In this document: one piece after another, positions 1-3,000 of the stretch | How positions within the stretch are numbered: the stretch's first letter is position 1 | How the letters are laid out: the number at the start of each line of letters is the position of its first letter | Virus record (IMG/VR): IMGVR_UViG_2703718824_000007 | Span: 1-4,548 of that record | DNA length: 4,548 nt | DNA from: a virus | Lineage: Duplodnaviria > Heunggongvirae > Uroviricota > Caudoviricetes | Strand: one strand, 5' to 3' | Program-made: the position numbers

Positions 1-3000
1 CCGCACACTCGCGCAGAGGAGTCTCCCTGTCGGGCTGCGGTCTCTGTTAATACGGGAATACGGCGACAATACCGCGCCATGGATAATAAGGTCGCTCAAC
101 ACACTGGCTGTAATGCAGCGGATACCATGCGGCATTTAGCGGCATTCATCGTACACTCAACGGTTAGCTCTTCATTCGTGGCATTCACCTGAAAGGTCCG
201 GGAGTGTAATTGCGTACATTTACCACTGAACGAACCTTCAACAAGAACACGACCACGCTGCAAAATACGGAACGGAATTGTTCCCTGAAAAGGTTCTACG
301 GTTACCCGTAATTTCTTCATGTATCCTCCGGATAATAAAAAGCCAGCTTAGTGCACTGAGTGCGTATATATTCCTGCGCCCCTTCCAGCTGCTTCTGCAT
401 TGTCATCAACCGTTCTCTGAGGTTGAAATAATCCCGTTCAGCGGTGTCTGCCAGTCGGGGGCCGGTTGCATTATCCACGCCGGAGGTGCCGGTGGCTTCA
501 CGCACGGTACCGGTGCAGGTGGCGTTGATCCGCAGGCGCTTACGACCAGCGGCAATATCAGCACGCAGAGTTTCATTTTCAGCTCTCGCATCGGCTAATT
601 CCCTCGAGTATTTTGCATCGAGCGCAGCAACATCACGCTGGCGCACCTGCATGTCAGTAATGGTGGCATTCGCCTGTTCCAGCTCTCTGGCTTTTTTATC
701 GCGCTGCGCTTTGTAGGTGATGGCGTTATCGCGGTAATGATTCAGCCCCAGACTAAGCGCACCACAGACCACCAGCAGAATAACAGTAAACGCGGAAAGA
801 ATTCGGTTTATGCTCACCATGCCCCCTGTCAGAAATTGCAGATTATCAGCTCGCTGACACTGCTTGTCTTACCACGTGGTACAGTATAACGATGAGCAAC
901 ATGATGAATATTCATCCCCTCAAACAATCGTCTCATTTCCTGCGAATCGTTCAGGGATATAATCATTTTGCCTTTTATTGTGCGGGCAAGTTCTGCCATG
1001 CGCTCATAATTGCAGAATGAAAAATCAATGCCGTAACCACCATCCAACCAATACGGAGGATCGCAGTAAAACAGCGTTGTCGGGCGGTCATACCGTGCGA
1101 TACAGACCTCCCAGTCAAGGTGTTCAATAGTTGCCCGCGCCAGCCGATCACGGGCTTCCTGCAATAACTGCTCTGTATTCCCGGGGATTATCTGCGGTCT
1201 GTGAGTTTTAACTCCAAATGCCCGACTGTATGCTCTTCCGCCATACGCGCACTTCTGGATAAAAAAGAAACGGACAGCCCGCTGGATATCCGTCATGTAC
1301 TCCGTGTGCTGATTTATCACCTCATTCCACATCTCACGACTGGCGAGCATCCACTGAAACTGGCGGGAAAATTCCTCCTGGTGGTACTTCACCACACGGT
1401 AGAGATTAACGATATCACTGTTTATATCGTTGATGATTTCAGCGCAGCTCGGTTTTTTCATAAAGAACAGTGCCGCACCGCCACAGAACGGTTCCACATA
1501 CAGAGTGTGCTCAGGAAATAACGGCAGAATATGTTTTGCCAGACGACGCTTCCCTCCTAACCACGGGAGAAACGGTTTTGCAGAGTTATTATTCATTTCA
1601 CCACCAGCGGATTTCCCGGATTAGAACCGCAATTGCCACAATGCGAATGGCAAATGCCGTTGCCCGAATAAATTCAGTACTCATCTGTTTAAATAAATTG
1701 TCGTCATCAGTCACTGTCACCCCACCAGCCCTGCCGAAGTCAACGCCATCCAGGCTATGGAAAGAAAAAGAGCAACCATCATTAGCGAAAATGAAACGCC
1801 GACAATCACACAGATGGTCTTCGCCAGCGTTATGAGTTTGCCTGATATCATTAGACGCCACTCCATCAATCCGTCTTTGTGATTTTTCCTTTGCCTGTAT
1901 CAGCCAGGACAAAACCAATCAGCAGATTCGCTTCGTTTATCAACGTGCGAATTTTTGATACATGCGCGGCTTTAACCAGTTTCCATTCGTTTAACCCTGT
2001 ACCAAACAGACTGGCAATGTTTTTATCCCGTTTCATGTCAGCGCATGCCTGGTTGAGTTCTTCCATCACGCTCATTTGACGAGGATTAACGACAAAACCC
2101 TTCGTCCAGTATTCATAGAGAACATCGTCGCACTCTTCCTGATACTGGATAACCTTGTCGCGGATTCCGGGTTTTACTTTGTTGGGATTGATGGTTTGTA
2201 ACCAGCCTGCAAGTTTTCGAAGTGGCAGGGACACCATATTGCGTCGTTTCCCGTCCTCAGCAACCATAACGATTTCCGTTATAGTTGACGCAAAACGCTG
2301 TCTTAACTTAGCCAACTGTGATTGCCAGGCCAGCCCCATCCCCGCAACGACAGGTTTCATGGGAACGTATGGTTCGCCGTTATGGTTAACCACATAAAGA
2401 GAATCGCCGTGAAACGGCACGGTTATCATATTCATCGGTTATTTCCTTTTAGTGATGAACCCTGCGCACAGGAATAACCAGCCCAAAGAGGGTTAACCAG
2501 ACCACTGCCGGTTATCCACCAGGGCTCATCCTGAAAGGTTCTTTGGTTTATTTACGCTTGTGCGAAGCGCAGAAATGACAAAGGCACCATTACGGTGCCT
2601 CTGCGTGAAATAATGATCCTGACTTTATTCACTTACATTTTGCCAGTTCGCAGGATTTCGTGTTATCCGTCCGCGTTGGCCAACGTCATTTTTCAGCAAA
2701 ATATTCTGCTTATCTGTCGATACCCCAGCATGCCAGCGCACTCTCCTGGTCGCGACGGGATACCTGACCGTAGCAATTATTTGAGCGAATACGGCAGTCT
2801 CTGCCACCGTCCTTAATCCACCAGCGAATCGCTTCGCAGGCACCTTTTCGATCGCCTGCATTAATTCGTTTATAAAACGTCGACGTGAAACACTTACCGG
2901 GGCCAATGTTGTAAGGACAGAATGACGCAATTCCCGCTTTCTGGGGTTCAGTCAGTGGCACTTTGATGTTTTTCTCCACCCATGCCAGCGCCTTATCACG

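Follow-up and report, generated by a model that had tools for sequence, protein, structure and literature searches.

A conserved leader RNA with a predicted pseudoknot in a probable stack of cargo modules between the endolysin and Rz genes of a lambdoid prophage

The stretch of DNA considered here, positions 1 to 4,548 of the IMG/VR virus record IMGVR_UViG_2703718824_000007 (4,548 nt in all; hereafter the window), covers late genes of a lambdoid prophage resembling the Shiga toxin (Stx) phages 933W and BP-4795, and every gene in it lies on the minus strand. Our subject is the interval bounded upstream by the endolysin gene R (2710-3243; PF00959, Phage_lysozyme, E = 6.6e-25; annotated as lysozyme in relatives) and downstream by the Rz i-spanin gene (317-820; PF03245, E = 5e-50). 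Read in the direction of transcription, the endolysin stop codon, which ends at 2710, is followed by a 274 nt gap (2436-2709) in which we found no credible open reading frame (ORF), and then by an Ant-like gene of 189 aa (1866-2435; P22_AR_N, PF10547, E = 9e-45, plus ORF11CD3, PF10549), a hydrophobic ORF of 49 aa (1717-1866; PHROG 4906, E = 5e-27, a family of unknown function) whose start codon overlaps the ant stop codon as TGATG, the A at 1866 belonging to both, a candidate hydrophobic ORF of 28 aa (1598-1684; MSTEFIRATAFAIRIVAIAVLIREIRWW; 86% nucleotide identity to phage PhiR5_1), a D12/Dam-class methylase gene of 255 aa (829-1596; PF02086, E = 9e-27) and an 8 nt spacer (821-828; CAGGGGGC) between the methylase stop and the Rz ATG. 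An initial annotation of the window had described ant, the small membrane ORF and the methylase as one inserted block; its coordinates, including the overlap at 1866 and the 8 nt gap before Rz, were all correct and the three genes it named are real, although it overlooked the 28 aa ORF. As described below, comparison of related loci shows that the gap holds a conserved pseudoknotted RNA fold, as judged by covariation, with a basal helix that contains the Shine-Dalgarno (SD) sequence of ant.

Taken whole, the gap folds better than shuffled sequence (z = -3.87, equalled in 0 of 200 shuffles), and the hairpins and repeated motifs that the initial annotation had noticed in it are real, being the arms of an RNA structure. 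The gap has two parts that are distributed differently. The 86 nt proximal to the endolysin (2624-2709, minus strand) are all that many phage records match (gap query positions 1-86 only); this segment accompanies the endolysin with or without ant, and it is kept in strain 2013C-3033, which lacks ant. The rest of the gap, some 190 nt, goes with ant-type genes: a Klebsiella phage has it before a KilA-N gene within its tail gene cluster, and a Salmonella prophage has it after a different lysozyme. Within the 86 nt segment there is also an 8-codon mini-ORF (2663-2689, minus strand; ATG…GGA TAA) whose start, stop and last two codons are conserved in 933W, in locus L002 and in Salmonella while its interior varies; it could be a leader peptide or a product of chance.

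The part that travels with ant holds first a terminator-like hairpin predicted by folding (2570-2604, minus strand; GCAGAGGCACC-GUAAU-GGUGCCUUUGU, then CAUUUCUG). Strong intrinsic terminators, with a GC stem and U6-7, occupy this position in other copies of the cassette, as judged from a set of 95 distinct upstream sequences. Next comes a short hairpin, H2 (2554-2570, minus strand; GCGCUU-CGCAC-AAGCGU), whose loop is predicted to pair with the 3' internal loop of a second hairpin, H3 (GUGCG, within 2460-2472), in a pseudoknot. H3 itself (2445-2538, minus strand) is long and irregular, and its basal helix, CCUUU:AAAGG, joins an anti-SD sequence to the SD of ant. The SD AAAGG stands 7-10 nt before the ATG and is predicted to be paired with CCUUU in every variant folded; all eight leader variants tested fold to the same H3 shape, the spacer between H2 and H3 is constrained to 12-18 nt, and the usual order of the leader is intrinsic terminator, H2, 12-18 nt, H3, 7-10 nt and ATG. 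The supposition that the gap would carry regulatory signals of its own is thus borne out by the terminator-like hairpin and by a structured leader predicted to occlude the SD, but not by any promoter.

This arrangement is common. An exact-pattern scan of viral contigs returned at least 119 stretches and, together with loci that had already been fetched, there are at least 145 copies with at least 40 distinct cores. The genes behind the leader encode P22_AR_N, KilA-N, Rha, AntA and KilAC proteins with ORF11CD3 or P63C tails, as well as HNH_3 endonucleases, and among the 122 copies listed 28 lie between homologues of R and Rz, 39 just after Rz and 42 elsewhere. Two leaders occur in some phages (L067, L106 and L155/L169), and different cargo genes stand behind them: in L067 and L106 the Ant and Rha genes are ~1.4 kb apart, and in the Symbiopectobacterium locus L155 two divergent leader copies lie 900 nt apart. 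Other P22_AR_N genes (loci L160-L167 and L170) are preceded by a different conserved hairpin, of the GAAGCCCCAAC…GGGGCUUC type, ~30-90 nt upstream of position 2501 of each locus, and it is this type that is found instead of H2/H3 in Erwinia, Rosenbergiella, Yersinia pekkanenii, Providencia huashanensis, Mixta and Izhakiella.

The leader appears to have escaped description. A scan of the window against Rfam 15 (E ≤ 1) gave no match, C4 and IsrK included, and at the leader in eight divergent loci Rfam again gave none, the matches obtained being the unrelated isrN, STnc100 and a tRNA. In the literature, we found no paper that prints either strand of the conserved leader, nor one that combines KilA-N, Rha and leader terms. 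A coding role was rejected, as the small ORFs within the leader differ in frame and length among variants (5 aa vs 19 aa). So was identity with the known small RNAs (sRNAs) of enterohaemorrhagic Escherichia coli prophages: the anti-sRNAs, including AsxR and AgvB, lie 3' of PR', the Pas sRNAs map to the interval from the esterase gene to the holin gene, and neither group is encoded in the gap between R and ant.

Because the outer helix was built into the pattern scan, loci were instead retrieved by way of the protein. Divergent leaders were found in this way upstream of P22_AR_N homologues in Photorhabdus, Providencia, Yersinia, Symbiopectobacterium and Serratia symbiotica, and their helices are fully compensated (one Photorhabdus helix, for example, reads UAUAGAAAUAGAGCCUG…CAGGCUCUAAUUUCUAUA); a covariance model finds the divergent copies at E values of 1e-5 to 1e-11. 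In the alignment that includes them, A3, standard pairs occupy 99% of cells as against 36-55% when the partner is slid by 1-3 columns, and changes on both sides are seen in 17 of 24 pairs, a number that none of 500 shuffles reached (mean 4.3) and that slid partners, with 0-4, do not approach. The stem of H2 alone occurs as GCGC:GCGC, GCACC:GGUGC, GCGU:ACGC and GCAC:GUGC. Among the changes that keep a helix are G-U pairs, which work in RNA only.

The pseudoknot was scored separately, by direct counts of complementarity and a permutation test rather than by the columns of a MAFFT alignment (A5), because indels put the pseudoknot partners out of register there and column counting was dropped. Across 67 distinct canonical leaders, the variable base of the contact is Watson-Crick in 65 (G:C in 26, A:U in 24 and U:A in 15), and of the two exceptions one is a recombinant and the other an ambiguity of parsing. 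The recombinant, at 2462-2657 of locus L070, joins an H2 of the window type (loop CGCAC) to an H3 of the 933W type (internal loop GUGAGA) and has one pseudoknot mismatch; this mixture of H2 and H3 shows that recombination has taken place inside the leader. In other genera the contact reads CUAGCA:UGCUAG, CCGAAA:UUUCGG, CCGCA:UGCGG, UGCCC:GGGCA and GUGCA:UGCGC, and when partners were permuted over 10 lineages the observed score of 54 (34.3 +/- 3.2 under permutation) was reached once in 200,000 trials. Covariation therefore supports both the helices and the pseudoknot in leaders from Escherichia, Salmonella, Klebsiella, Photorhabdus, Providencia, Yersinia and Symbiopectobacterium.

What would such a leader control? 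The Ant-like protein (PHROG 524) has its P22_AR_N domain (PF10547) at residues 5-113, but it is not P22 Ant: it has 189 aa where the full length is ~300 aa, and in place of the P22 Ant C-terminal domain it ends in ORF11CD3, a long helical hairpin in the AlphaFold2 model (mean predicted confidence, pLDDT, 74). The architecture is widespread, with 2137 homologues across Enterobacterales. A sequence search of the PDB found no relative, a fold search gave no usable match, and our literature search turned up no functional study of the gene. The ant annotation in the 933W record carries the remark 'possible regulation of host cell lysis'. One way to account for the locus is that the protein acts late and in trans as an antirepressor, inducing co-resident heteroimmune prophages, as in the crosstalk among Gifsy phages. 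The P22_AR_N domain fits such a role, as do the genomes of Shiga toxin-producing E. coli (STEC), which have a median of four copies of the gene among many lambdoid prophages, and trans-acting antirepressors are reported from Salmonella (PMC3121763). We consider this account unlikely, although it is the alternative that survives best.

A second alternative is that the gap sequence acts as DNA rather than RNA: it might be a promoter, an operator or a homology 'linker' for the swapping of cargo. H2 is indeed palindromic (GCGC-N7-GCGC) and in some copies lies between weak -35-like and -10-like hexamers; moreover, the L070 breakpoint falls inside the leader, and one leader fronts many different genes. 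However, the hexamers are not conserved, the helices change on both sides with retention of the RNA-only G-U pairs, and the loop of H2 covaries with a site ~70 nt downstream, all of which make a role exclusively as DNA improbable. A role as a recombination linker can, on the other hand, be compatible with one as RNA.

How the RNA would work is less firmly established than its fold. In the mechanism that we favour, the leader would keep translation of the Ant-like protein low or conditional through occlusion of the SD, and the structure might be opened by a ligand, by a factor from host or phage, by temperature or by RNase III cutting the long helix. The tertiary contact and the strongly conserved unpaired nucleotides suggest that the leader may answer a specific signal rather than serve as a passive attenuator. 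Several observations weigh against this account or temper it. The minimum free energy z score of the leader is -4.0 for the variant in the window and -3.85 for one other, whereas the remaining variants give modest values of -1.6 to -2.8; alignment A3 was fitted to the covariance model, which favours pairing, although the slid controls and the compensations visible by eye in the raw sequences argue against an artefact; and a strict terminator scan did not call the hairpin at 2570-2604, whose U-tract is poor. Furthermore, the antirepressor of phage Phi24B that was tested experimentally is a different, early gene upstream of qut (PMC3064807), and both co-transcription of the cargo and translational control have been deduced from sequence only. 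On balance, we think it somewhat more probable than the converse that translation is controlled by SD occlusion. It is a more tentative proposal, to which we give a little less than an even chance, that the ~120 nt element at 2445-2570 represents an undescribed class of signal-responsive cis-regulatory RNA, a portable module for KilA-N, Rha, P22_AR_N, AntA, KilAC and HNH genes across Enterobacterales.

There is precedent for RNA control of antirepressor genes. P22 sar/ant and the c4-icd-ant operons of P1 and P7 place such genes under trans-acting or antisense RNAs, and C4 families are represented in Rfam. The likeness to the locus described here lies in the antirepressor-type gene and in RNA structure or pairing at the ribosome-binding site; the difference is that the element in the window is a predicted cis leader with an internal pseudoknot. 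The protein side has a parallel as well, for Iyer, Koonin and Aravind reportedly described in 2002 a class of domain-shuffled phage regulators built from KilA-N, Rha, Bro-N and ANT domains. Their account concerns proteins, and the genes fronted by the leader are similarly mixed, with P22_AR_N, KilA-N, Rha or AntA N-termini joined to ORF11CD3, KilAC or P63C C-termini; neither in Rfam nor in the literature did we find an RNA leader shared by this class.

The leader is one component of the ~1.9 kb between R and Rz, which was correctly recognized in the initial annotation as cargo relative to a plain S-R-Rz cassette; it lies on the late strand, is tightly spaced and has no convincing internal promoter. 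Much of it is standard in Stx phages. The window matches 454 phage records at a coverage that never exceeds ~59%, and what is covered is the holin, endolysin, ant and Rz; 933W, BP-4795 and Stx2_EH1910 share a layout of endolysin, ~270 nt gap, 189 aa ant and Rz, and BP-4795 and EH1910 also annotate an ORF of ~48 aa between ant and Rz. An ant-type gene at this place in Stx phages, which the initial annotation had mentioned, has been annotated since the 933W record (AF125520) and is present in BP-4795 too, and Ant phams were found in 126 of 279 phages in a survey of Stx phages (PMC8136144); on ant between R and Rz, our literature search found nothing beyond genome annotation. The order in 933W and BP-4795 (NC_004813) is the same as in the window, with holin, endolysin, ~270 nt gap, 189 aa ant, small ORF and Rz/Rz1, the gap being 81% identical and ant and the small ORF ~88%. 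In those phages, however, the small ORF leads straight to Rz, whereas the window adds the 28 aa ORF, a methylase gene of 768 nt and a rebuilt Rz 5' end. The location of ant between R and Rz is thus already known, and the methylase, though rare, is a new passenger of a familiar sort.

If ant, the small membrane ORF and the methylase formed one co-selected functional unit inserted as a block, for host takeover, anti-restriction or superinfection control, one would point to their common strand, to their overlapping or nearly abutting genes and to the recurrence of all of them together, in four or more E. coli genomes and most contigs of the two methylase clusters. The distribution of the genes speaks otherwise. 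Of 5426 complete E. coli genomes, 711 have ant with the 49 aa ORF, which travels with it in Stx phages (it corresponds to BP-4795 ORF50), the median among carriers being four copies, whereas 5 have the methylase. Nor do the genes always travel together when compared across genomes: in strain 2013C-3033 the methylase stands behind small ORFs without ant, and in IMG/VR contig L068 it stands behind a 231 aa gene of the KilAC type. The ant pair is accordingly a standard annotated feature of these phages and the methylase occurs independently of it, so that each part of the supposed block, for its own reason, tells against a three-gene unit. In strain IBS28, moreover, the methylase is frameshifted while its neighbours are intact, and the junctions of the methylase are separate from those of ant. 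We regard a single functional unit as very unlikely. Because distribution, junctions and the IBS28 frameshift all separate the methylase from ant, comparison of these loci indicates that the block is in all probability a stack of separately acquired cargo modules in the known variable slot between R and Rz.

The methylase also has junctions of its own, as seen in an alignment with BP-4795, PhiR5_1, L002 and L003. Window positions 1592-1693 align to a region that ends at the Rz start of PhiR5_1 (TGGTGGTGAnATGAA), so that the methylase now uses what was the start codon and ribosome site of Rz. After the methylase stop there follow CAGGGGGC, then ATG GTG AGC ATA, and then AACCG, the old second codon of Rz onward; the first four codons of Rz in the window (ATG GTG AGC ATA, 809-820) are thus part of the methylase insert, and Rz has gained three codons and a new SD, which comes from the 8 nt spacer. 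Wherever the contig read extends far enough, the methylase is directly upstream of Rz/Rz1, and backbones of the prophages that carry it differ in their terminase types. The region of the 28 aa ORF is kept in PhiR5_1 just upstream of that phage's Rz; the ORF has weak PHROG matches to the C-terminal ends of longer families, and PGAP annotates it only as a partial pseudogene or fragment. This candidate ORF may be a remnant of the series of small ORFs present in PhiR5_1, and its status as coding sequence is uncertain.

By its motifs and setting, the methylase is an orphan N6-adenine methyltransferase (MTase) of the Dam family (D12 class). It scores well above the PF02086 cutoff (94.9 bits vs 22) and has motif I, EPFCGGAALF (FxGxG), at residues 35-44 (window 1474-1491) ahead of motif IV, CDPPYW, at residues 178-183 (DPPY at 1051-1062), in the order of the alpha class. 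Among solved structures the closest to it are DpnM and E. coli Dam, both GATC enzymes, and GATC is the default expectation for its target. That expectation is not assured, as the score only marginally exceeds the cutoff for the Dam subfamily TIGR00571 (115.2 bits vs 114.85) and a HMMER alignment places P and K where E. coli Dam has K9 and P134; the recognition hairpin is also shorter. In the whole window, GATC is seen 6 times where base composition would predict ~17.5, a small sample. Related proteins form two clusters of 99% and 87% identity, with 112 and 86 members, all from E. coli, and in the 86% allele the methylase gene directly follows the 49 aa ORF; the next relatives, Dam proteins of enterobacterial prophages that make up the closest large family, are 57-61% identical. 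The collection of phage records contains no copy of the gene, and its best match there is the dam of Vibrio phage VP882 (70% over part of the gene).

Orphan Dam-family MTases encoded by phages include T4 Dam, P1 Dmt and VP882 Dam. Like them, the methylase in the window has FxGxG and then DPPY, is carried by a phage and has no partner nuclease; unlike them, it sits between lysis genes and does not conserve the Dam K9 and P134 positions. Methylases ~58% identical to it lie beside lysis genes elsewhere, adjoining a holin and an SLT transglycosylase in Mu-like prophages (L025-L028), and in the Salmonella prophage L029 a methylase of the same ~58%-identical family is directly upstream of the holin. 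A second, unrelated gene annotated as a 'DNA-methyltransferase' is present in the E. coli IBS28 prophage (L001, 809-1867), just downstream of the antiterminator gene and upstream of a tRNA cluster. That the methylase is half of a restriction-modification or other prophage defence system is the least probable of the alternatives and can be set aside: the best PADLOC model was Type II MTase (MTase_II/oMTase, E = 5.7e-92), with a weaker match to PD-Lambda-5_B, but these are generic MTase models with no partner, the other five window ORFs scanned had no PADLOC match, no nuclease gene is called or annotated beside the methylase in any locus read, and its direct neighbours are small ORFs and Rz.

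Our overall explanation, which we hold to be likely, is therefore a stack of modules, one of which bears a structured leader. The interval between R and Rz would be a moron slot of the late operon, in which modules were acquired independently and stacked head to tail. Module 1 would be the widespread 'ant cassette', comprising the terminator-like hairpin, the structured leader of ~120 nt, the P22_AR_N/ORF11CD3 gene and the 49 aa membrane ORF; module 2, the 28 aa small ORF common to phages of the PhiR5_1 type; and module 3, the rare orphan Dam-family methylase, inserted exactly at the old start codon of Rz. All the cargo genes would be read from the Q-antiterminated, terminator-resistant late transcript, as would follow from the failure to find a promoter of their own. 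The methylase would modify progeny DNA late, before packaging, and so protect it from restriction in the next host.

Morons, such as lambda bor and lom and those of HK97, are defined in the sense of Hendrix as inserts of promoter, gene and terminator. The cargo described here resembles them in that its presence varies between genes that stand side by side in relatives, and in its sharp junctions at gene boundaries; it differs in that the ant cassette has no detected promoter, has its terminator-like element upstream and carries a structured leader. No sigma-70-like promoter was found in the gap, and the whole window has one such site where 5.3 are expected by chance. That site (842-870, minus strand; AAGACA-17-GATAAT, 9/12), which falls in the last part of the methylase gene, shortly before Rz, is probably meaningless given this expectation.

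The remainder of the window is that of a lambdoid lysis cassette of the phage 21/933W type, in which PF04971, PF00959, PF03245 and PF06085 all occur on one strand. Upstream of the slot are a DUF826-like ORF (4132-4404, minus strand), a holin of the phage 21 type (3841-4056, minus strand; PF04971, P21 holin S) and a hypothetical gene of 185 aa (3280-3837, minus strand; no Pfam match, PHROG 1085), and the endolysin begins with a hydrophobic segment like that of signal-anchor-release (SAR) endolysins. The Rz1 o-spanin gene (406-591, minus strand; PF06085, E = 2.6e-21) is embedded in Rz, and an ORF of 74 aa follows (96-320, minus strand). The interval between holin and endolysin (3280-3837) is a second variable slot: relatives have YdfR, DUF1327 fragments or nothing there. 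Between the DUF826-like ORF and the holin, at ~4091-4122 (minus strand), an imperfect GC hairpin is followed by TTTTT; it has no Rfam match. A 2026 preprint assigns the PasA/PasC sRNA genes to the interval from the esterase to the holin-lysozyme operon.

Stx phages routinely have cargo between R and Rz, so the three-gene framing carries little weight, and the part of the locus that deserves follow-up is the leader RNA inside what had been labelled a 'non-coding region'. The methylase could influence how well phage progeny pass from one STEC strain to another in the face of restriction. The leader is weightier, as it is present in several copies per STEC genome, shares the late operon with stx and the lysis genes, and precedes a widespread class of DNA-binding or 'antirepressor' genes. 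It offers a concrete handle on when these genes are translated, on what opens the structure, and on how prophage crosstalk and induction might be linked to a cellular signal.

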